Part shown: one piece after another, positions 2,580 to 40,591 of the stretch
Layout: the number at the start of each line of letters is the position of its first letter
Position numbering within the stretch: position 1 is the stretch's first letter
IMG/VR virus record: IMGVR_UViG_3300045988_094320
DNA from: a virus
Strand: one strand, 5' to 3'
Length of the DNA stretch: 54,795 bases
The notes under the pieces: generated by a model
What the model was told of the DNA's origin: nothing
What the model saw: only the letters and a program-made list of their open reading frames with translations
Database searches by the model: none
Position numbers and translations under genes: made by a program

Positions 2580-5500
2580 ATGGCAGAAGTAGATAGCTTA
2601 GAGATTGCTATAAAAGCGCAGGCAACACAAGCAAATAACGCATTAGATAAACTGGTAAACAATCTTACTAGGCTGTCAAACTCTCTTATGAGCGTAAATA
2701 CAAGCGGTCTCAACGGTTTGTCAAATGGAGTAACAAAGCTGTCTAATGCTATGGCTGGAATCAGCACGGTAAAAACGGCAGATTTTACGAGAGTTGCTAA
2801 TGGAATCACAAAAATTTCAAGCATTGACACGGCTAATTTGAACCGCTCTGCATCTGCAATCGGTATGCTCGGAAAAGCCTTAACACCGCTGACCGCTTCT
2901 GGTGCATCTGACAGAGTTACAGCACTTGCAAAAGCGATTTCACAGCTTGGTTATAAGTCAAGCACAAAAGCCATTGACAATATACCTAAACTGGCTAAAG
3001 CTATGAAACAGCTTATTACAACGCTTTCCGGCGCACCAAAGGTAAGTCAAAATCTTATAGATATGACTAACGCGCTTGCACAATTTGCGCGTACTGGGGC
3101 ATCCGGCGGCAATGCGGCAAAGGCACTTGCGAATAACTTTACCTCTTTTGGTTCTACGGCAGTAAAAGCTAAAAAACATACGTTTTCACTAGCATCCGCT
3201 TTCGGAAAACTATACGCTTCATACTGGCTTCTGATTCGCGGAGCTGGGAAGTTAAAAGAAGCGATCAACATATCATCTGCTTTGACAGAAGTACAAAACG
3301 TAGTTGTCAATACGTTCGGGCAATATACAGATTCGCTTGAAAAATTCTCGAAAAATGCAATACAGCAGTATGGTATTTCTGAGTTGACTGCAAAGCAGAC
3401 AGCAAGTAGGTATCAGGCAATGGGTATCGCAATGGGAGTACCTATTCAGAAAATGTCTGATATGTCTATTGCGTTGACGAAGTTATCCGCTGATATGGCA
3501 TCTTTCTATAATGTAGAGCAAAGCCAAGTGCAGCAGAATTTGCAGTCTATTTTCACTGGCGAGACAGAACCAATGAGAAAATATGGTATCGACCTCACAA
3601 ATGCCACATTGAAAGAATGGGCTTTAAAAGAGGGTCTTGATGCGGATATTTCGTCTATGACGCAGATGGAAAAGACAATGCTTCGATACCAATACGTAAT
3701 GCAGAATACAGCGAATGTGCAGGGGGACTTCGCTAGGACTGCAGATACATGGGCGAACCAGCTTCGTATCTTGCGAGAGCAGTTTAAGGCGCTTGGGGCT
3801 ATTTGGGGCAATGCTTTTATCAATATGCTTAAACCACTTGTCAAGGCACTGAATACGGCTATGCAAGCTGTAATTAAGTTTTCTGAAACTGTTGTAAATG
3901 CGCTTGGGGTTATTTTTGGTTGGAAGATTGAAATGCAGTCCGGCGCAATAGCAGAAGATTACGACACGGCGGCTGGAAGTGCTGATGATTTAGCGGCAAA
4001 CACAGGGAAAGCGGCAGATAATGCTAAAAAGCTAAAACAGCAGTTGCAGGGCTTTGATAAGTTAAACAATCTTACAACAAACCAAGGCAGCGACAGCGGA
4101 ACTGGAAAGGGAAGCGGTGCTGGTGGCGCTACTGGCGGTGCATCTGGCGGCAATCTGAAATTCAATGTTAAGGAAACGGAAAGTTTTTACAAGAGCAAGA
4201 TAAAAACGCTTGAAGGACTTGGAAAGTATATCGGGAATAGCCTGTCAAAAGCTATGGAATCCATTAAATGGGATAAAGTATATAAGAAAGCAAAAGCGTT
4301 CGGTACAGGTCTTGCACAGTTTTTAAATGGTCTTATCAGTCCAAGACTTTTCGGAAATGTCGGAAAAACCATTGCTGGCGCACTTAACACAGCTATCTAT
4401 GCCGCGCTTTCATTCGGAACGACATTTAACTGGAAAAACTTAGGCAATTCGATTGCAAAAGGAATCAATAAGTTTTTTGACACGTTTGATTTCGCAGCAT
4501 TCGGAAAGACCGTCAATACATGGGTACATGGTATATGGACTACTCTTACTACGGCAATCAAGAAGATAAAGTGGGAAAATGTATTAAAAGGAATTACTGA
4601 TTTCCTAGGAGAACTTGATCTCGAAACAGTTTCAATTATTCTTGGTGTCATTACAATCAAAGGAATAAAAAAACTTCTGTTTTCTGAAAAATTCAAAAAA
4701 TGGTTGGGAGAAAAAGCATCAAAGGTAATTGTCAAAGCAATAGCTTCAAAATTGGGAGTAGAAGCGACTTGGTCTGTAGTAGGAAAAACTATTTTAACCA
4801 AGGTCGGCGGAATATTTGCAGGAATCGGCGCAAAAATTGGAGCCACAATAAACATGGCAATAGCTTCTGCTGGCGGTATGCAGGCAATAATTGCAGCAGG
4901 CACCTTAATAGCAGAAACATTATTCGCAGGAATAGCCGCGGCAATAGCAGGATGGAATTTAGGTCAGTGGCTAAATGAAAAACTAACAGGCGAAAAAATA
5001 GATATGTCATTCTCGGAGCAAATGACAGAAATCAAAAATTCCTTTTCTGATGGTTCGTGGAAAGAAGCGTTGAAACTTTGGGGCGACGATATCTACAACG
5101 GTTTTCTTGCTGTTTCAGAATCAGAAGACCAACTTATGAAGCCTGTTAAAGATGGGCTGAATGAAGTGAGAGGAATGTTCTCTGACGGTCAATTCGGAGA
5201 AGCTATGTCTCTTTGGGGGCAAGATATATACGATGGTTTCTTGTCAGTATCGCAGTCGCAAGATAATTTTATGAAGCCTTTTAAAGACAAGTACAATGAG
5301 GTAAAAGGTCTTTTTGCTGACGGACAGTTCGGCGCGGCTATGGGAGCATGGGGCGACGATATCAAACTGAAACTGAACAATGTAAAAGATAGTTTTCTGC
5401 TGACATGGGATAACATAAAGTTAGGCGTTAAAAGCGCATGGCAAGCTACGGTTGACGGTCTGAAAGAAATATGGAACAAATTCGCAACGTGGCTGAACGA

Positions 5501-15363: not shown

Positions 15364-16157
15364 ACGAATTACAGATTTTTAATTCCGATGTATTCGGAAA
15401 CATTCGTACAACAGAAATTGAAGGAAAACCTTATTTTGTTGCTACCGACATTGCAACAGCGCTTGGTTATGCGACACCTAGAGATGCAATTTCAAGACAT
15501 TGCAAGGGAGTCGTGAAACGCGACACCCCTACATCTAGTGGCGTACAGTCCATGTCATACATAAATGAGGGGGATTTGTACAGGCTGATTATGAAATCCA
15601 AACTTCCGTCAGCAGAGAAATTTGAATCATGGGTAATGGACGAGGTTCTGCCAACAATCCGCAGGCATGGGATGTATGCAACGGAAGAACTAATTGCTAA
15701 CCCAGATTTGGCAATTCAAGCCTTTACAGCTTTGAAAGCGGAACGAGTGAAAAATGCAGAACTGGAAAGCACTGTACAGCAGATGGATAAGGTAATAACA
15801 GAACTGACACCGAAAGCAGACTATGCAGACAGGATTTTATCGTCAAACGACTGCATGACCGTTACGCAGATTGCGCAGGACTATGGCTTATCCGCAGTTT
15901 CATTCAATCGGATTTTGAGCCGCGCAGGTATTCAGAGAAAAGTCGGAGAACAGTGGATTTTGTACGCAGAGTACCAAGGCAAGGGATATGTGCAGAACAA
16001 AACTTACGACTACGAAAAGTCAAACGGAACCACTGGCACAAAGTTATCGACCGTGTGGACGCAGAAAGGCAGGATGTTCCTGTACAACAGGCTGAAAGAA
16101 ATCGGAGTTTATCCAATGATGGAGAAAGAAGAAAGGAGACAATATGAAGGGTTATAA
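15360..16157 (+). CDS. Antirepressor (Bro-N + KilAC domains)
   Basis: The N-terminus LQIFNSDVFGNIRTTEIEGKPYFVATDIATALGY fits Bro-N. The C-terminus MTVTQIAQDYGLSAVSFNRILSRAGIQRK fits KilAC. Confidence 0.85.
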   Translation: MNELQIFNSDVFGNIRTTEIEGKPYFVATDIATALGYATPRDAISRHCKGVVKRDTPTSSGVQSMSYINEGDLYRLIMKSKLPSAEKFESWVMDEVLPTIRRHGMYATEELIANPDLAIQAFTALKAERVKNAELESTVQQMDKVITELTPKADYADRILSSNDCMTVTQIAQDYGLSAVSFNRILSRAGIQRKVGEQWILYAEYQGKGYVQNKTYDYEKSNGTTGTKLSTVWTQKGRMFLYNRLKEIGVYPMMEKEERRQYEGL

Positions 16158-16998
16158 GGGATTTAACAAGGATTTTACTTGCCTTGAAAAACAGTATGAA
16201 GAAAACACTGATTATGAGGAAAACGGAGATGATATTTGTAAACAGGGAGTTATGCATTTTTGCAAAAATCCGTGGGATGTTCTTAATTATTATCCATTAG
16301 TGGATGATAATGGAAACTTTTCAGAATTTGCAGAGGTAGAGGCGGACGGTGATATTTTTGAAAAAGAAAATAAGTGCGCCTCTACAAAATTACATATTGG
16401 TGAAAAGTTAGGATTGAAAGGCTTTATAAAGGCTTGCGTAAATTTTACATTAGAAAAAACAAAATACAATGCTGATTCAAAAGAAGATTTATTGAATGAT
16501 AACGAATGCGATTCCGCAAAGATTGGCAGTAGTGGAGATTCCGCAAAGATTGGCAGTAGTGGAGATTCCGCACAGATTGGCAGTAGTGGAGATTCCGCAC
16601 AGATTGGCAGTAGTGGATATTACGCAAAGATTGGCAGTAGTGGAGATTCCGCACAGATTGGCAGTAGTGGAGATTCCGCAAAGATTGGCAGTAGTGGAGA
16701 TTCCGCAAAGATTGGCAGTAGTGGAGATTCCGCACAGATTGGCAGTAGTGGAGATTACGCAAAGATTGTATCGGAAGGTAAAAATTCTGTTGTTATGGCT
16801 GCCGGATATAATTCTATTGCAAAGGCAAAGGTTGGTAGTTGGATTACTCTTGCTGAATGGGTTCAAACAAACGAAAGATACAAAAACGGAGATCTTATTT
16901 GGATTCCCAAATTAGTAAAAACAGAGTATGTAGATGGAGAACGCATTAAAGAAGATACATTCTACAAATTAAAAAATGGAGAGTTTAAAGAAGTATGA
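16144..16998 (+). CDS. Nonapeptide-repeat protein (N-terminal domain resembles the DUF7666 family)
   Basis: 284 aa. MKGYKGFNKDFTC..YEENTDYEE is followed by about 9.6 copies of GDSA(K/Q)IGSS and then a SVVMAAGYNSIAKAKVGSWITLAEW tail. Confidence 0.7.
   Translation: MKGYKGFNKDFTCLEKQYEENTDYEENGDDICKQGVMHFCKNPWDVLNYYPLVDDNGNFSEFAEVEADGDIFEKENKCASTKLHIGEKLGLKGFIKACVNFTLEKTKYNADSKEDLLNDNECDSAKIGSSGDSAKIGSSGDSAQIGSSGDSAQIGSSGYYAKIGSSGDSAQIGSSGDSAKIGSSGDSAKIGSSGDSAQIGSSGDYAKIVSEGKNSVVMAAGYNSIAKAKVGSWITLAEWVQTNERYKNGDLIWIPKLVKTEYVDGERIKEDTFYKLKNGEFKEV
16510..16767 (+). repeat. 27-bp in-frame tandem repeat, 9 full copies plus one partial
   Basis: The unit gattccgca(a/c)agattggcagtagtgga is nearly identical between copies. 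Variants encode K or Q, and two units are YYA/DYA. Confidence 0.95.
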
Positions 16999-29332: not shown

Positions 29333-29361
29333 GGTTGTCCGGACATAAAACCTAGGTTTCC
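29333..29361. promoter_or_regulatory. Bipartite double palindrome, copy A (TGTCCGGACA + AAACCTAGGTTT)
   Basis: 10-mer at 29336-29345 and perfect 12-mer palindrome at 29348-29359, about 16 nt upstream of ATG 29378. Confidence 0.7.
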
Positions 29362-30232: not shown

Positions 30233-30918
30233 GAAAAGTGGCAGAAAGACGTATGTTTACAAAAAGGATAACTGAAAGTGACTCTTTTTTAGATATGCCC
30301 AGTAGTACGCAAATGTTGTATTTTCATTTTTCTATGAATGCGGATGATGATGGATTTGTGAATAACCCAAAGAAAATACAAAAAATGTGCGGTGCTTCTG
30401 ATGATGATTTTAAATTGCTGATTGCAAAATCATTTATCATACTATTCGACAGCGGAATAATCGTAATAAAGCATTGGAAAATGCACAATTACATTCAGGC
30501 AGACAGGTACAGACCTACAGATTATGTAGAAGAGAAATCTATGCTTGGAATCAAGTCAAACAAGGCTTATACGTTGGATGTATCCAAAACGGATACAGAA
30601 TGTATACAGAATGGATACGTAGGTAAGGTAAGTATAGATAAGGATAGTATAGATAAGGATAGTATAGGGGAGAGTGTGAGAGTGGAAAAAGCTAAACGCT
30701 TTTATCCGCCCACTCTTGATGAAGTTAAACAGTATTGCGAAGAGCGGAAGAATAATATTGATCCGATGGCATTTATTGATTTCTATTCGAGCAAAGGTTG
30801 GATGATTGGGAAAAATAGAATGAAAGATTGGAAGGCGGCTGTTAGGACTTGGGAGCGAAAAAGAAAAGAACAATCCCGGGCAGAAAGCAGCGTATATGAC
30901 GAATGGAGGGATGCCTAA
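30229..30918 (+). CDS. Replisome organizer (phage replication initiator)
   Basis: N-terminus RRMFTKRITESDSFLDMPSSTQMLYFHFSMNADDDGFV fits Phage_rep_org_N. The C-terminus is DnaD-like (FIDFYSSKGWMIGKNRMKDWKAAVRTWE). Confidence 0.75.
   Translation: MRKVAERRMFTKRITESDSFLDMPSSTQMLYFHFSMNADDDGFVNNPKKIQKMCGASDDDFKLLIAKSFIILFDSGIIVIKHWKMHNYIQADRYRPTDYVEEKSMLGIKSNKAYTLDVSKTDTECIQNGYVGKVSIDKDSIDKDSIGESVRVEKAKRFYPPTLDEVKQYCEERKNNIDPMAFIDFYSSKGWMIGKNRMKDWKAAVRTWERKRKEQSRAESSVYDEWRDA
30631..30670. repeat. 15-bp iterons (2.6 copies) inside the replisome organizer gene; candidate ori
   Basis: agtatagataaggat x2, then agtatagggg; they encode SIDKDSIDKDSIG. Confidence 0.55.
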
Positions 30919-31554: not shown

Positions 31555-31585
31555 GGTTTGTCCGGACAAATAAAGCTAGCTTTAC
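31555..31585. promoter_or_regulatory. Bipartite double palindrome, copy B (TGTCCGGACA + AAAGCTAGCTTT)
   Basis: 10-mer at 31559-31568 and perfect 12-mer palindrome at 31572-31583, about 12 nt upstream of ATG 31598. Confidence 0.7.
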
Positions 31586-34057: not shown

Positions 34058-34318
34058 AATTGGTACATAATTGGTACATAAAAATAAAACAAAGACAAAG
34101 AAATGCGATAAAACAGGCATTTCTGGTAAGGAGAAAGTTGAAATGAAATTAGGCATCGTAGTTAATTGACGTTTTTTATATAAATTTACGTGGTTTAATA
34201 TATTGCTACAAATACCTATTTTATTGAGTTTTTTGAGTTTTTGTGAAATTGTATATTTTTATATATTTTCACGTATTTTTATAAAAATTGGTACATAATT
34301 GGTACATAACTGGTACAC
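34058..34318. other. attP-like region: five direct 11-bp arm-type repeats flanking an AT-rich core
   Basis: aattggtacat x2 (34058-34079), then aattggtacat x2 plus aactggtacac (34286-34318). About 205 bp of AT-rich DNA lies between, with the inverted GTGAAA/TTTCAC pair. Confidence 0.55.
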
Positions 34319-35398: not shown

Positions 35399-35434
35399 GG
35401 GTTTTGTCCGGACAGAGTAAAAACCAAGGTTCCC
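35399..35434. promoter_or_regulatory. Bipartite double palindrome, copy C (TGTCCGGACA + AAACCAAGGTT)
   Basis: 10-mer at 35405-35414 and imperfect second palindrome at 35421-35431, 33 nt upstream of ATG 35468. Confidence 0.65.
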
Positions 35435-36836: not shown

Positions 36837-37466
36837 ATGCACAAATGGGCTAAACAGATAATGGAATGCGTCAAGGCTAAGGTTGACGGAATTGGAATTG
36901 ACAATTTTGAAGGGCAAAATCTTGACGATTTAAAGGATTTTACAGAAATAGCGAAGAACATAGCTTGTTTTGACAAGGATTACAGAATCGTTGAAGCTAT
37001 GGAAAAGTCAGAAGATAATGAGGATATTATGCGTATGCTCGAACAGTACGAAGATTATCCGGAACGCAGATTTTACGACCATTACAGATATGCCGATGGC
37101 AGATTTGCACCAAAAGGTCGCGGAACATACCGCAGAGGTTATGAAGAGCCGCCGTACTGGCACATGACACCAGAGCGTTATCACGACATGGAATACAGCC
37201 GTGATATGGATAGGGGAAATGGTCGTATGTACTATACGGAGCCTACGCACACAGAAAGCCGGTATGAAAGCGCAAAGAGGGCTTACACAGAATCAAAGGA
37301 ACTGCACAAAGGAAATGAGCCGCAGGACAAAGAAGCAAAAATGCGCGAACTGGAAAAGTACATGAAAGAAATGTCAGATGATCTGCTGAATCTGATGAAA
37401 GGAATGTCACAGGAAGAAATGAATATGGCAAAGTCCAAATTATCAGTCCTTGTCAGCAAAATGTAA
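36837..37466 (+). CDS. Tyr/Arg/Glu-rich protein, unknown function
   Basis: 209 aa with a central low-complexity region RRFYDHYRYADGRFAPKGRGTYRRGYEEPPYWHMTPERYHDMEYSRDMDRGNGRMYY. Confidence 0.55.
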   Translation: MHKWAKQIMECVKAKVDGIGIDNFEGQNLDDLKDFTEIAKNIACFDKDYRIVEAMEKSEDNEDIMRMLEQYEDYPERRFYDHYRYADGRFAPKGRGTYRRGYEEPPYWHMTPERYHDMEYSRDMDRGNGRMYYTEPTHTESRYESAKRAYTESKELHKGNEPQDKEAKMRELEKYMKEMSDDLLNLMKGMSQEEMNMAKSKLSVLVSKM

Positions 37467-37470
37467 AAAC

Positions 37471-37503
37471 AAAGGCTATGGGTGCAATGCTCATAGCCTT
37501 TTT
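37471..37503 (+). terminator. Intrinsic terminator
   Basis: AAAGGCTATG-11 nt-CATAGCCTTT followed by TT. The RBS AGGAG of the next gene follows directly. Confidence 0.75.
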
Positions 37504-37516
37504 AGGAGTTGATTAT

Positions 37517-37843
37517 ATGATATTTACAGTAAATGGAAATAACTGGATACTGCAATATGTAAGACCTAGCAGCGAAGAACTGCGCAGGTCAGACGGCGTA
37601 TACACTCTCGGCGTTACCGACAATACAACCAAAACGGTAACGATTGCGGATAACCTGTCAGATCGAATGACAGACAAGGTACTATGCCATGAGTTGACGC
37701 ACGTTTACAGCTTCGAGAATGGCTGCCACATGGATATGCACACAGAAGAGATAGTTGCGGATTTTCTATCTCTGTATGGTCGAGATATCGTGTACATGGC
37801 TGATGATCTGATGAAGATTTTCCCAAGAAAAGTTGCGTACTAA
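37517..37843 (+). CDS. ImmA/IrrE-like or SprT-like zinc metalloprotease (HExxH)
   Basis: 108 aa from ATG 37517, with ..TVTIADNLSDRMTDKVLCHELTHV.. Confidence 0.55.
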   Translation: MIFTVNGNNWILQYVRPSSEELRRSDGVYTLGVTDNTTKTVTIADNLSDRMTDKVLCHELTHVYSFENGCHMDMHTEEIVADFLSLYGRDIVYMADDLMKIFPRKVAY

Positions 37844-38092
37844 TTAGATTTATGCAAGCTGGAAAACTGGATTTTGAAAATCTTGATAAAAACACTAAAA
37901 AGATCTGCTTTCAAAAAATTTTTCACGAAAAAAATTTCAAATCGGGGAGAATTTGAACCCCCCCCGGTACCATTTTACAGGCTCAAAAACCAAAACGGCG
38001 TTTTTGACGAATTTTACAAAATTTTCGTGAAATTTGGGTTGGAAAATTGAAAATGATTTATAGTGCTTTCGGTTCGTAGATGATACTGGGCC

Positions 38093-38263
38093 TGTCCGGG
38101 CGCGTGCTGATCTTTTCGCTGATCTTTTACGGATCGCCGGCATATTAAACAAATGCCATATATACCGCTGTACCTGTTTGATTGTTCTGATCTTTCGCCA
38201 TGCTCCGGCATATGGAATCTGGGCGCACCTGTCCGGGTGTCCTTCTTGCTGATCTTGTCCGGG
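38093..38263. repeat. Cluster of short repeats: CTGATCTT x4, TGTCCGGG x3, CCGGCATAT x2
   Basis: CTGATCTT at 38107, 38119, 38187 and 38249. TGTCCGGG at 38093, 38230 and 38256. CCGGCATAT at 38137 and 38205. There are five GATC sites within about 150 bp. Confidence 0.85.
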
Positions 38264-38301
38264 CGTGGTTGCAGAATTTCAGAGTGCACAAATTAAAGGC
38301 T

Positions 38302-38329
38302 ATAAGATGCGAATATTTGCACCTGTGAA
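38302..38329 (-). promoter_or_regulatory. Minus-strand promoter P2 (diverged duplicate of P1)
   Basis: Read on the minus strand: TTCACA, 16-nt spacer, TCTTAT. Confidence 0.4.
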
Positions 38330-38401
38330 CGCGCATAACGCCATCAGAGCCATGCAAGACATGCAAGACATATAAATACACTTATAGATATAATTAAGGC
38401 T

Positions 38402-38430
38402 ATAATATGCCTATATTGTCAAATTGTCAA
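38402..38430 (-). promoter_or_regulatory. Minus-strand promoter P1, near consensus
   Basis: Read on the minus strand: TTGACA (38430-38425), 17-nt spacer, TATTAT (38407-38402). Confidence 0.6.
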
Positions 38431-38459
38431 GGTATGAAAAGAAGCCGAGAAAATCCCGG

Positions 38460-38654
38460 CTATTGTTCGATGATTTCAAAGCATTTTTGTATTTCTTCCA
38501 GACTGTGACAGCATTCCCCGCCTGGATAACGATATATAGCCATATAATCGCCACAGCCTAAAGGTTGTATATCTTTCAAATATGCTCTATATCCTCCGTT
38601 CCCTTTTATAATCTTTGGGTATCCGTCTTTCCTCATTTTTTCAATTATTGTCAT
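38460..38654 (-). CDS. Small Cys-containing protein (64 aa)
   Basis: ATG 38654 with RBS GGAGGAA at 7 nt. It is the last gene of the leftward operon and is followed by a hairpin at 38441-38461. Confidence 0.5.
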   Translation of the reverse strand: MTIIEKMRKDGYPKIIKGNGGYRAYLKDIQPLGCGDYMAIYRYPGGECCHSLEEIQKCFEIIEQ

Positions 38655-38744
38655 GCTCTTTTTCCTCCATATTCTAATTTTATCCCAGTTACCCGGGTAA
38701 AAGCAAGCCGGGGAATCGAACCCCGGAAGCACCGACCTTGCTAA

Positions 38745-39077
38745 TTATTTGCTTGCTAAAATCTCCCTTGCTAATAAATCCCAGTAAAGGCTATCGCCGC
38801 GCTTGTCAAGCCACTTTTCGGCTTCTTCTGTGCTTTCGTCTAACCATTCAGCCATAAGCTGGATAATATCATAATAACTATAATCAACGCCAACGCCCAA
38901 ACCTCTCAGCCATTCTATGCAGGCGTTACGCTCTCCAAGTCTTGCAATCGCCCAACCGTATTCACTTACAAACTTTTCCTTAATGTCCTTAATTGTGATA
39001 AGCTCTTCACTCTGTGCAACCTCTGCCAAATAATTTCTAACCGCTACTTTAACTTCCTTGCTGTTTGTTCTTCTCAT
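38745..39077 (-). CDS. Acidic helical protein (110 aa), unknown function
   Basis: Track ORF; Trp/Glu-rich C-terminal half. Confidence 0.55.
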   Translation of the reverse strand: MRRTNSKEVKVAVRNYLAEVAQSEELITIKDIKEKFVSEYGWAIARLGERNACIEWLRGLGVGVDYSYYDIIQLMAEWLDESTEEAEKWLDKRGDSLYWDLLAREILASK

Positions 39078-39105
39078 TTCTTTTTACCTGTGCTATAATA
39101 TAGCT

Positions 39106-39168
39106 ACCTTTCTTTTTTTGATTGGTGGCGGCTTGTGCTTGGTAGGCGTGCCGCCTTTTTTCTTTTTT
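39106..39168 (+). ncRNA. Candidate cis-antisense sRNA of about 60 nt
   Basis: A perfect extended -10, TGCTATAAT (39091-39099), lies about 27 nt upstream of hairpin GGCGGC (39127-32)/GCCGCC (39150-55), which is followed by TTTTTTCTTTTTT. It is antisense to the intercistronic leader of the minus-strand operon. Confidence 0.4.
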
Positions 39169-39233
39169 GGTCTGCCATCATCAGCACCGGGAGACCGTCC
39201 CGCGGTGGACGCTCCAAGGTCGGAGCGTTTCGG

Positions 39234-39386
39234 CTAAATCATGTTAATTGCTTCGGCGTTTAGTTCTATGCATTTCTGGTTGCATCTTTCGATTGATCCA
39301 GTAAAAACGATCTTGCCTGATCCGTTTATTTCTTCAACAACGCAATAACCGAAATAATCGTTATAAGATACATAATATTTTGGCAT
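39234..39386 (-). CDS. Small protein (50 aa), not in the track
   Basis: MPKYYVSYNDYFGYCVVEEINGSGKIVFTGSIERCNQKCIELNAEAINMI, with RBS GGAGCTGGGAAG. Confidence 0.4.
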   Translation of the reverse strand: MPKYYVSYNDYFGYCVVEEINGSGKIVFTGSIERCNQKCIELNAEAINMI

Positions 39387-39401
39387 CTTCCCAGCTCCTT
39401 T

Positions 39402-39515
39402 CTATTTCTCAATCAGCTTAATATCCTGATCGGATTCAATCGCTGTTACTTCTGATCTTGTAAATTCCTCTGATCCTACATACATACCGTTTACATAAAT
39501 TCTATAAGTTTTCAT
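39402..39515 (-). CDS. Small protein (37 aa)
   Basis: MKTYRIYVNGMYVGSEEFTRSEVTAIESDQDIKLIEK, with RBS AAAGGAAG. It is the internal start of track ORF 39402..39776. Confidence 0.35.
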   Translation of the reverse strand: MKTYRIYVNGMYVGSEEFTRSEVTAIESDQDIKLIEK

Positions 39516-39577
39516 TTGCTTTTCTTCCTTTCGTTTGGCGCTTGGTTTTTCTTTTGATAGCTTTATTATAACAGATA

Positions 39578-39717
39578 TAAGGCACAAAACAAGTCGGAAT
39601 ATTATACAAATATAAGGCACAAAACAATTATTCTTTTGTGCAATGTGTATAAGGCACAAATATATTGAGACACTTATATATAGAAGAAAAATAAAACCTT
39701 GACATATAAGGCACAAA
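39578..39717. promoter_or_regulatory. Four direct TAAGGCACAAA boxes in the divergent promoter region
   Basis: Boxes at 39578, 39613, 39650 and 39707. The last sits between TTGACA (39699) and TATTAT (39722) of the RHH gene promoter. On the other strand the boxes overlap two TATAAT-containing leftward promoters. Confidence 0.7.
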
Positions 39718-39759
39718 GCAGTATTATATCTATATAATATTAAAAGGAGGTTGTGAGAT

Positions 39760-39954
39760 ATGAACGAAGAACACAAGACAAGCGAAGCACAAAGAAAAGC
39801 TATATATAATTATGATAGCAAATTTGAGCGGATCAATTGCAGATTCCAAGCAGGCACAAAAGACAGAATCAAGGCATTGAAATATTCGGCGAATGACTTT
39901 ATAAAATTGGCGGTTGCCGAAAAGCTGGAGCGCGAAGAAAAAATATTGAAATAA
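39760..39954 (+). CDS. Ribbon-helix-helix (CopG/Arc-like) DNA-binding protein
   Basis: 64 aa with RBS AAAGGAGG. ERINCRFQAGTKDRIKALKYSANDFIKLAVAEKLERE fits the beta-strand plus two helices RHH pattern. Confidence 0.5.
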   Translation: MNEEHKTSEAQRKAIYNYDSKFERINCRFQAGTKDRIKALKYSANDFIKLAVAEKLEREEKILK

Positions 39955-39997
39955 GGCACAAAATACTATTGACATGTAAGGCACAAAATGATATCAT
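39952..39997 (+). promoter_or_regulatory. Two more TAAGGCACAAA boxes and a second boxed promoter
   Basis: Boxes at 39952 and 39977. TTGACA (39969-74), 17-nt spacer containing a box, TATCAT (39992-97). Confidence 0.6.
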
Positions 39998-40297: not shown

Positions 40298-40327
40298 AGC
40301 CCCGGCTGAAAAGCTGGGGTTTTCTTT
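40298..40327 (+). terminator. Intrinsic terminator
   Basis: AGCCCCGGC-tgaaaa-GCTGGGGTT followed by TTCTTT. Confidence 0.65.
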
Positions 40328-40364
40328 GGTTGCCGTTTGGTTGCCGTTTGGTTGCCAAGTGGTT
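40328..40364. repeat. 11-bp direct repeats GGTTGCCGTTT, about 3.3 copies
   Basis: Copies at 40328-38, 40339-49 and 40350-60 (GGTTGCCAAGT), then GGTT. Confidence 0.9.
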
Positions 40365-40444
40365 AACAATACAGCTAAAAACAAGGCTGCCAAAACAGCT
40401 ACAAGCCGCATAAAAACTGGATTTTGACAAAAAGCAGATAGGGT

Positions 40445-40515
40445 ATACATACCCTATACATACCCTATGCATACTGTATCCATACTGTATACATAGTGTA
40501 TCCATACCGTATACG
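40445..40515. repeat. 11-bp phased iterons AT(A/C/G)CATA(C/G)(C/T)(C/G)T, 6.5 copies
   Basis: atacataccct atacataccct atgcatactgt atccatactgt atacatagtgt atccataccgt atacg. Confidence 0.9.
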
Positions 40516-40516
40516 C

Positions 40517-40591
40517 AAAGAAAAAAGAGAAAAAGAAAGCAGAAAGAAAAGAAGCAAAAGAAAGAGTAAAGAATAAAGATAAATAAAGAAA
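40517..40591. repeat. Polypurine tract (plus strand), followed by about 140 bp of AT-rich DNA with a central (CG)3 block
   Basis: 75 nt with only 6 pyrimidines. The region 40600-40736 is almost pure A/T except tatatatcgcgcgcggatatat. Confidence 0.85.

Follow-up and report, generated by a model that had tools for sequence, protein, structure and literature searches.

A candidate accessory RNA unit in an ORF-free gap between convergent genes of an uncultured gut phage

What is encoded in a gap of 617 bp that separates two convergent genes of a temperate phage and contains no recognizable gene of its own? The gap (37844-38459) lies in the IMG/VR virus record IMGVR_UViG_3300045988_094320, of which the whole analyzed stretch of 54,795 nucleotides is called the window here. 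The window represents a ~54.8-kb temperate siphovirus, with relatives from human-gut metagenomes. An initial annotation had described the gap as packed with promoters and short repeats, and every motif that it listed was found again, either in place or one to two bases away. The explanation that we prefer, tentatively and with a probability of roughly 45%, is an accessory and exchangeable non-coding RNA unit, which would consist of a terminator, a promoter (P1) and a transcribed body (module B) and would function through short sequence motifs.

Relatives were gathered by means of the 108-aa protein encoded to the left of the gap, a 16-mer from promoter P1 and a 25-mer from module B, and are cited by locus number (L001 and so on) where they have to be told apart. 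Alignments of the region were built from 9 sequences, then from 20 sequences (alignment A3, two clades, 512 columns). In the two clades bearing P1 and module B, the 108-aa protein is ~100% or ~71% identical to that of the window. L103 belongs to another clade than the window, and L021 is a locus of a distant clade.

The promoter-bearing cassette and its distribution

Comparison of these loci indicates that the gap is composite, with a fixed spacer (module A) and an optional, exchangeable cassette made of P1 and module B. Its open reading frame (ORF)-free body and the associated signals are located as follows.

38443-38461, minus strand: intrinsic terminator of the upstream leftward gene (-11.8 kcal/mol, z=-3.2)
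38402-38430, minus strand: promoter P1 (TTGACA at 38430-38425, 17-nt spacer, TATTAT at 38407-38402; predicted start near 38395)
38051-38395, minus strand: module B, the presumed transcribed, ORF-free cassette body, ~350 bp
38107-38256, plus strand: CTGATC(T) array (sites at 38107, 38119, 38187 and 38249; GGATCG at 38131; 12-nt tandem at 38106-38128)
37844-38050, no strand assigned: module A, an AT-rich (29-39% GC) and A-tract-rich spacer

P1 matches the consensus at 11 of 12 positions and is the best promoter-like site in 37400-39400. The claim of a near-consensus promoter on the minus strand was confirmed at exactly this place, with hexamers and spacing as in sigma-70/sigma-A promoters. Sixteen variants of P1 were compared, all from copies found without the promoter as bait. 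None of them differs in the -35 hexamer or in the spacing, and 15 have the same -10 hexamer, while the sequence of the spacer varies. Hexamers and spacing kept beside a varying spacer are the signature of a working sigma-A promoter, and on this evidence P1 is a genuine, selectively maintained promoter. The same arrangement recurs in L103 and in the distant clade (TTGACA-17-TATGAT).

A diverged duplicate promoter, P2 (38329-38302), had also been proposed. The duplication itself is real, with paralogous 22-nt blocks at 38296-38317 and 38396-38417 that are 86% identical. As a promoter, however, P2 fails the rules applied (A at position 2 and T at position 6 of the -10 hexamer) and is absent from the promoter scan. 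Its -10 hexamer is variable in relatives (TCTTAT, TGCGAT, TCTGAT and TGTTAT), and the second, duplicated TTGACA is specific to the window's lineage. A counter-transcript promoter of the ColE1 RNA I kind on the plus strand of the P2 block was rejected, with a good -10 in only ~5 of 20 copies.

The stem of the terminator occurs in compensatory alternatives (AGCCGGGATTTTCTCGGCT, AGCCGGATAGCTCCGGCT and AGGGCATATACTGCCCT). As the terminator lies directly upstream of P1, the promoter would be an insulated, independent transcription start. These substitution patterns show a promoter and a terminator that are both, by all appearances, under selection.

The cassette (module B and P1, 38051-38440) was found in 28 distinct copies from two clades and at 16 further metagenome-contig loci, and always at this one locus. 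An ImmA-like gene lies ~200 bp from it wherever the flank suffices, and is convergent in the 17 viral loci of checked orientation. Module B and P1 are absent from L002, L004 and L005. A 16-mer that is invariant in all but two of the cassette copies found without the promoter as bait occurs nowhere in L002 (54,757 bp) or L004 (54,598 bp), where ordinary leftward protein genes abut module A. Since these two genomes are otherwise near-identical to the window, the cassette is dispensable.

L097 and L098 match the window at 100% in the three upstream genes but at only 78% in module B; the identity of module B to relatives is 74-84% even beside flanks of 100% identity. Identical flanks around a divergent module B denote a phylogeny decoupled from the flanks, as in mosaic exchange. 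Between the two cassette-bearing clades module B is ~80% identical, compared with only ~70% for the adjacent protein. The distant clade displays the same layout, namely a terminator, TTGACA-17-TATGAT, ~400 ORF-free bases and a G-run box (described below), with unrelated sequence and a repeat CGGCTT. In its loci L009-L080, which span 532 kb, there are just 44 GATC sites (0.08 per kb, with 3.4 expected), which implies strong selection, probably by a GATC-specific restriction system in the hosts. As judged from the loci compared, the distribution shows the cassette to be dispensable, mosaic and confined to one locus.

The alignment further shows that module B is apparently conserved block by block, the GATC motifs included. 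In the 20 aligned copies 47% of the columns are invariant, and 8 runs of at least 5 columns were found where 3.2 were expected (P=0.006). The conserved blocks read TAATTATAT, TTTATATG, GCAAATATT, TGAAATTCTG, GCCCGGAC, GATCAG, AGATCAGGA, GCAGCGGTATAT and GATCAGC on the minus strand, and no indels occur in any copy from ~38381 to 38300. Of the 16 GATC columns 14 are invariant, compared with 118 of the 267 other columns (Fisher P=0.001). The motifs that bear GATC have one orientation, and on the transcribed strand their common core is GATCAG. Among the consensus GATC sites, four persist in 19-20 of the 20 copies and the fifth in 16, the other 4 copies having lost it by deletion. In the L103 clade such sites number 6-8.

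The repeats in the initial annotation were recovered. The four copies of CTGATCTT are present (38107, 38119, 38187 and 38249; 8 in the whole window against 2.3 expected), as are the five GATC sites claimed, which lie in 38109-38254, and the two copies of CCGGCATAT. Three copies of TGTCCGGG exist at 38093, 38230 and 38256, but the first and second are not conserved, and the tandem 9-mer (38351-38371) is real but specific to the window's lineage. At the window's density 0.73 GATC sites would be expected in 38050-38400, where 5 occur; the local density is about 12 times that of the window by one count and about 7-fold enriched by another, and the window overall is depleted (114 against 176 expected). 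CCGG is likewise ~7-fold enriched in 38050-38400 (5 against 0.73 expected at the window's own density), and TGTCCGG occurs 13 times in the window against 2.0 expected. Tandem Repeats Finder (TRF) reports only arrays of 12 nt x1.9, 9 nt x2.3 and 8 nt x2 in the region. The AT skew of module B agrees with the transcribed-strand bias of the phage genes. As for other short palindromes, GGCC is found once in 54.8 kb (75 expected), at 38087-38090 inside the region, and is not conserved in relatives (CTGGACC); the window is also depleted for CTAG (47 against 183) and ACGT (67 against 183).

The predicted transcript: coding potential, folding and known parallels

The absence of any credible ORF, as noted in the initial annotation, extends to all relatives, in which the gene caller of the public collection leaves the gap empty. 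Six-frame ORFs differ in frame and length between relatives. Searches of all frames against Pfam and PHROGs returned no family at E<0.005 and none reaching a curated cut-off, and a pseudogene or degraded gene was rejected for lack of similarity in any frame.

Three frames could nevertheless be claimed for a degraded or unconventional protein gene, whether a pseudogene, a small hydrophobic peptide or type I toxin, or a read-through extension. A hydrophobic ORF of 22-23 codons (MPCMVCVALWAFYAFTGANIRLL) follows P1 in 18 of 20 copies; it has no Shine-Dalgarno (SD) sequence, its variable sites are distributed 14/14/17 by codon position, it has an early stop in L137, and its ATG is lost in L107. A plus-strand ORF ending ...SGRGCRIS.RTN is open in 26 listed copies, though its N-terminal part switches frame between relatives, and it is open only because the underlying DNA is conserved. 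In the window, the frame past the TAA of the 108-aa gene has 68 open codons and stops exactly where module A ends; it is intriguing because the phage encodes a tRNA with a UUA anticodon. As a read-through extension it was rejected, since indels break the frame in L001, L002, L004, L006, L008, L091, L097 and L098; frameshifting indels in module A point to a non-coding spacer. With no third-position bias, no SD sequence, changing frames, indels and no family similarity, a protein gene of any of these kinds is very improbable, and the comparison shows a region that is to all appearances non-coding.

The UUA-anticodon tRNA (a UAA suppressor; 41 bits with the Rfam tRNA model) is located at 43228-43313 on the plus strand, and is followed at 43535-44119 by tRNA-Gln, tRNA-Ser and a weak fourth tRNA. 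The code otherwise looks standard, with long ORFs. In other clades a small ORF of ~45-51 aa, MTR(D/Q)KLIE(E/K)LG...YSA..., was found directly after the metallopeptidase-like gene (L103 10320-10475; L021 ~4340-4440). The gap of these clades is thus partly coding, and the window clade has no counterpart.

In the non-coding RNA model, the housekeeping sigma factor would fire P1 leftward immediately after the terminator of the neighbouring operon. The predicted RNA would be ~300-460 nt long with no ORF and no ribosome-binding site (RBS), and would run toward, possibly into, the 3' end of the convergent metallopeptidase-like gene. It might act through short motifs of a single orientation, namely AGAUCAG in four to six copies, CCCGGAC and several blocks of 8-12 nt. 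As the conserved features are short oriented motifs and not helices, we infer a motif-based binding platform or decoy for a protein or another RNA. The RNA may also be an antisense or interference partner of the convergent operon. The cassette would then be an accessory gene of the 'moron' type with an RNA product. We likewise infer that the transcript rather than the DNA would be the functional product, together with its 3' end and its target.

Several results weigh against an RNA product. A search of 37844-38459 against Rfam 15 gave no match at the gathering threshold, and all matches with E up to 10 were far below it. Folding energies of the two strands are no better than those of shuffles (z-scores of +0.34 and -0.60). 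In RNAalifold, the alignment of 9 sequences has a covariation term of +2.3 and that of 20 sequences one of -3.2. Behind the unit there is no canonical intrinsic terminator: the G-run hairpin, which is not kept in other clades, has an interrupted U-tract. Complementarity of the RNA to the rest of the phage is at chance level only. Conservation of the palindromes GATC and CCGG fits a function at the DNA level equally well.

The initial annotation had suggested a long structured RNA, for which z-scores, covariation terms and two-sided changes give no support. The RNAalifold consensus is shallow (-36 kcal/mol over 512 columns). Helices with at least two covarying pairs number 17 against 15 by strand, and the top ones are GU-rich and of low complexity. 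The count of paired cells exceeds that of shuffles, with the caveats that the alignment under test also supplied the structure and that its sequences fall in two clades. Two-sided changes are found mostly in helices 13 and 14, in columns without homology between these clades. Helix 8 (alignment columns 135-143 with 197-206) has two compensatory changes, both in L003, and is the only such helix. A global RNA fold is unsupported, and local hairpins are possible. Two specific RNA functions were also rejected. A 15-mer shared with 40413-40427, considered as a trans-antisense target, is not conserved beyond near-identical genomes. A type III toxin-antitoxin RNA or CRISPR mini-array would call for features that the region lacks, with no 28-37-nt repeats, no downstream gene on the same strand and CRISPR-DR families far below threshold.

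Phage morons and prophage non-coding RNAs are independent promoter-terminator units between phage genes, such as IsrK, DicF and small RNAs (sRNAs) of the AgvB/AsxR type. The cassette resembles them in its own strong promoter, the insulation by a terminator, presence or absence among near-identical genomes, the variable cargo cluster beside it and its decoupled phylogeny. It differs in that its 3' end is undefined and no terminator follows, in that neither a target nor a structural signature is predicted for it, in being much longer than typical sRNAs, and in having been seen in only one phage family and at one locus. With BLASTN the region matched none of 50,697 phage records. As neither an Rfam family nor an annotated phage record matches, the element is undescribed, though of a familiar kind: an intergenic accessory RNA or regulatory unit of a temperate phage, which is not a surprise.

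Alternative functions of the cassette and the spacer

The gap may instead be a buffer zone between convergent operons, in which only the promoter and terminators would matter, through antisense transcription or interference, and module B would be drifting filler from local duplications. The convergent layout conforms to this, and so does module B as the most divergent segment, with indels of 1, 12 and 24 nt and internal duplications. The lack of a structural signal and the protein genes abutting module A in L002 and L004 point the same way. Filler is nonetheless an unlikely explanation in view of the conserved blocks, the preferential retention of GATC, the indel-free stretch 38381-38300 and the higher identity of module B between clades than that of the adjacent protein.

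Equally low in probability is an array acting as DNA, in which the oriented CTGATC(T) and CCGGAC motifs would be bound by a phage or host protein, possibly in a manner sensitive to GATC or CCGG methylation, and transcription from P1 would be secondary. No part of module B is more conserved than the GATC columns, GATC and CCGG alike are enriched as described above, and the over-represented TGTCCGG also occurs in conserved palindromes upstream of three genes, in other clades too. The use of a different repeat by the nearly GATC-free distant clade also fits. However, the core is only 6-7 bp, the spacing is irregular (12, 68 and 62 bp), the TGTCCGGG copies are poorly conserved, the cassette is unchanged on a swap of the methyltransferase, and no candidate binding protein co-varies with it. 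A DNA array also gives no reason for the upkeep of a promoter so close to consensus and of a terminator that insulates it.

A link between the methyltransferase of the phage and the GATC cluster, as raised in the initial annotation, did not hold, since the same cassette is found with an N6/N4 or a C5 methyltransferase. The best PDB match of the window's enzyme is annotated DpnA (E=1.7e-15). No SeqA/Dam sequestration system is known from the host phylum. The idea of a regulatory hub sharing the CCGGACA element was sustained in one part only: the TGTCCGGACA palindromes are kept throughout the family, but conservation of the region's half-sites is only partial, and the connection is weak. The palindromes themselves lie at 29336-29345, 31559-31568 and 35405-35414, ~30-55 nt upstream of gene starts, and each is followed 4-7 nt later by a second palindrome (ACCTAGGT, AGCTAGCT and AACCAAGGTT). 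The L103 and L100 clades have the first palindrome too. A class of phage promoters probably uses these palindromes as activator sites.

Module A is relevant to the readings in which the spacer takes part, and contains two further features.

37921-31 and 38022-32, no strand assigned: 11-bp inverted pair TTTCACGAAAA / TTTTCGTGAAA, enclosing two hairpins
37944-37965, minus strand: G-run box with a G/C-run hairpin, reading GGGGGGGG-TTCAAAT-TCTCCCC

The spacer is 89-100% identical in all close relatives and is retained in L002, L004 and L005, all of which lack module B. Weak homology to it was found at the matching position in distant clades (nhmmer, best E=0.0024). The inverted pair and the hairpin are present just as first described. 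The right arm of the pair is invariant; the left arm varies (CACGAAAA, CACAAGAAAA and CGCGAAAA) without compensation. The minus-strand fold of 37921-38032 has z=-2.2 in the window, and its equivalents have +0.97 (L103) and -1.36 (L021). The multi-branch fold of module A is specific to the window clade.

The homopolymer of the G-run box ranges from 6 to 13 nt across relatives. Its pattern GGGGGNWTYAAAW is unique within the window and was found in 65 of 105 loci, once in 62 of them and twice in three loci of the L100 clade, with the same position and strand relative to the locus where checked. Across clades only the box GGGGG-N-WTYAAAW is kept on the minus strand, and the hairpin stem is not. 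The hairpin had been called T-arm-like, and GG-TTCAAAT-TC on the minus strand does resemble the T-loop consensus. However, the closing pair of the would-be T-loop reads G-T in place of G-C, the hairpin adjoins no acceptor strand, and the stem is lost in other clades. Matches of ARAGORN and the Rfam tRNA model occur only at 43228-44119 and none in the region, and the tRNA-like reading was dropped. A cos or pac site at the box was rejected because no contig ends there; contig ends cluster ~3.2-3.7 kb upstream of the metallopeptidase-like gene, in what is read as the att-int region.

The remaining alternative of comparable, low likelihood is a transcription-primed auxiliary origin similar to those of phage c2 or ColE1 RNA II, with a primer RNA from P1 that would hybridise persistently at the G-run and module A, and with the clade-specific cassettes as different 'ori types'. 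The c2 origin of Lactococcus Ceduovirus has a non-coding PE1-T transcript, a strong promoter, no ORF or RBS, and mutually dissimilar types (PMC7150918). The features expected of that class from sequence are found here, including a strong promoter before an RBS-free non-coding stretch, a second promoter-like copy downstream, and non-homologous types among related phages. The likeness extends to module A, which is AT-rich and rich in A-tracts and has its conserved G-run ~430 nt downstream of P1. Unlike this region, the c2 origin separates early and late blocks that diverge, occurs in all genomes and enables a plasmid to replicate (PMC7150918). Here the unit converges on a gene and is dispensable, and an SPP1-like helicase loader and iteron candidates lie elsewhere in the genome.

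Dense GATC clusters are known from oriC and from oriR of phage P1, and they would speak for an origin of some kind. The cassette is missing, though, from the ~54.6-54.8 kb genomes L002 and L004. L090 and L091 have different methyltransferases and different genes upstream of the loader (putative initiators); their cassettes are 99.5% identical, and their module B is the same. No DnaA boxes were found in the region, and the RNA-like strand has no G-skew save the G-run. The second replication origin suggested in the initial annotation is thus disfavoured: a cassette that is dispensable, does not track the initiator and is outdone by candidates elsewhere is unlikely to be an essential origin. An origin of either type as an essential of the lineage was rejected because module B and P1 are absent from L002, L004 and L005. 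An iteron-type origin, for which at least three regularly spaced direct repeats of 11-22 bp co-varying with a cognate initiator were sought, was rejected as well; the repeats here have a core of 6-8 bp, irregular spacing and no co-variation with an initiator, and arrays sit elsewhere.

Two textbook candidates were noted outside the region. At 30591-30667, tandem 11-mers (GGATACAGAAT x2.5) and 15-mers (TAGATAAGGATAGTA x3.2) lie inside a 229-aa gene directly upstream of the G39P-like helicase loader, which is likely an origin of the SPP1 or lambda style within an initiator gene. The ORF-poor stretch 40325-40700 has the classic anatomy of an origin or packaging site, with TTTGGTTGCCG x3, GTATACATACC x6.5, an 11-mer iteron array at 40443-40514, an ~85-bp purine tract and an ~90-bp AT-only block with CGCGCGCGG. 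A more specific proposal, by analogy with c2, would have the cassette as an exchangeable auxiliary origin dependent on host machinery, in which the GATCAG and CGGCTT types set replicon specificity and the GATC array couples firing to methylation. We consider it somewhat less probable again than a transcription-primed origin in general.

A packaging site of the phage P1 type was rejected as well, because TerL (at 46084) is ~8 kb off, the cassette is dispensable and no contig ends at the site. The region resembles pac and oriR of phage P1 and oriC of E. coli in its dense, conserved short repeats with GATC, with a core CTGATC here and TGATCA/G in phage P1 pac. It differs from them in its distance from the terminase genes, in having no flanking cleavage site or DnaA boxes, in its dispensability, and in a related clade that is nearly GATC-free. 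Methylation dependence is documented for pac of phage P1 (PMC12707154). An attachment site (attP) was rejected on the evidence of a 464-kb bacterial contig (L100), reached via homologue P0093, in which the host genes MCP and MetH abut homologues of the genes following int; the equivalent of this junction lies ~5.5 kb left of the region. Directly after int, tandem repeats of AATTGGTACAT (34058-34081 and 34286-34317) flank an AT-rich stretch. They look like arm-type sites of attP, which would place attP at 34.06-34.3 kb.

The neighbourhood, the phage family and the meaning of the cassette

The two genes that converge on the region are of different character.

37517-37843, plus strand: left flanking gene, encoding a 108-aa HExxH putative metallopeptidase (DUF6782 / SprT / M78-like, with sub-threshold Pfam matches) and converging on the region
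38460-38651, minus strand: right flanking gene, a 63-aa ORFan and the last gene of a variable leftward cluster

The left gene has an AGGAG RBS before the ATG at 37517, which is its true start instead of 37478, and its stop is at 37841-37843. An exact copy of the 108-aa protein was found on 18 contigs, and 246 homologues were found in total. The 63-aa gene has no family matches and is swapped for other genes in relatives. Nearly all genes of the window lie on the plus strand, except for the small leftward cluster at ~38460-39560, and the leftward neighbour genes form an exchangeable set of ORFans. The cargo genes of this cluster received no Pfam or PADLOC annotation.

Further elements were observed in and near the leftward cluster. 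A type II hammerhead ribozyme (39166-39235, minus strand; 63 bits with a gathering threshold of 37) lies between two small leftward genes, and the intergenic segment that bears it is 81-91% identical in relatives, even with the flanking genes swapped. At 38704-38754 (minus strand), a tRNA-like mini-element without a D-arm overlaps the stop codon of the gene 38745-39077. It has a 7-bp acceptor-like stem AGCAAGC/GCTTGCT, a 4-bp anticodon-like hairpin and a perfect T-arm CGGGG-TTCGATT-CCCCG, folds in this way at -20.1 kcal/mol, and keeps the T-arm piece in relatives. It may be a processing signal for RNase P/Z. Six copies of ATAAGGCACAAA occur at 39570-39995, two of them between the -35 and -10 of plus-strand TTGACA promoters that precede a 64-aa gene (39760-39954), ribbon-helix-helix-like by eye. 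This looks like the operator array of a genetic switch between the leftward cluster and the rightward genes.

The window encodes an SPP1-type portal, a large terminase, an E-type major capsid protein, a GH25 lysin, an antirepressor, RecT, an HNH endonuclease, an N6/N4 methyltransferase, the G39P-like helicase loader, Xis and a tyrosine integrase. Portal identity to the nearest cultured phages is below 46%. A protein scan with one genome per species gave a single match, a 2.5-kb contig of a Clostridia metagenome-assembled genome. The phage belongs to an uncultured family of gut Clostridia phages, seen as common in the human gut. Elsewhere in these genomes, a 27-nt unit is repeated 9.6 times (16510-16768; 95% matches) within a DUF7666 / collagen-like gene (16144-16998), and the near-identical relative L094 has an additional 218-aa gene annotated Cas_Csd1 (PF09709; 6196-6852) between the leftward cluster and the terminase.

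For the region itself, the labels of tRNA-like element, attP, iteron origin and pseudogene can be removed. The clade-wise swap of the cassette for an unrelated, equally ORF-free unit suggests a specificity determinant, and the conserved, oriented motifs with GATC offer a handle for pull-downs or methylome analysis. If the transcript is real, the cassette would be an accessory gene made of RNA only, swapped among common uncultured phages of gut Clostridia. Such RNA 'morons' escape protein-centred annotation, and may regulate lysogeny, superinfection or host physiology.

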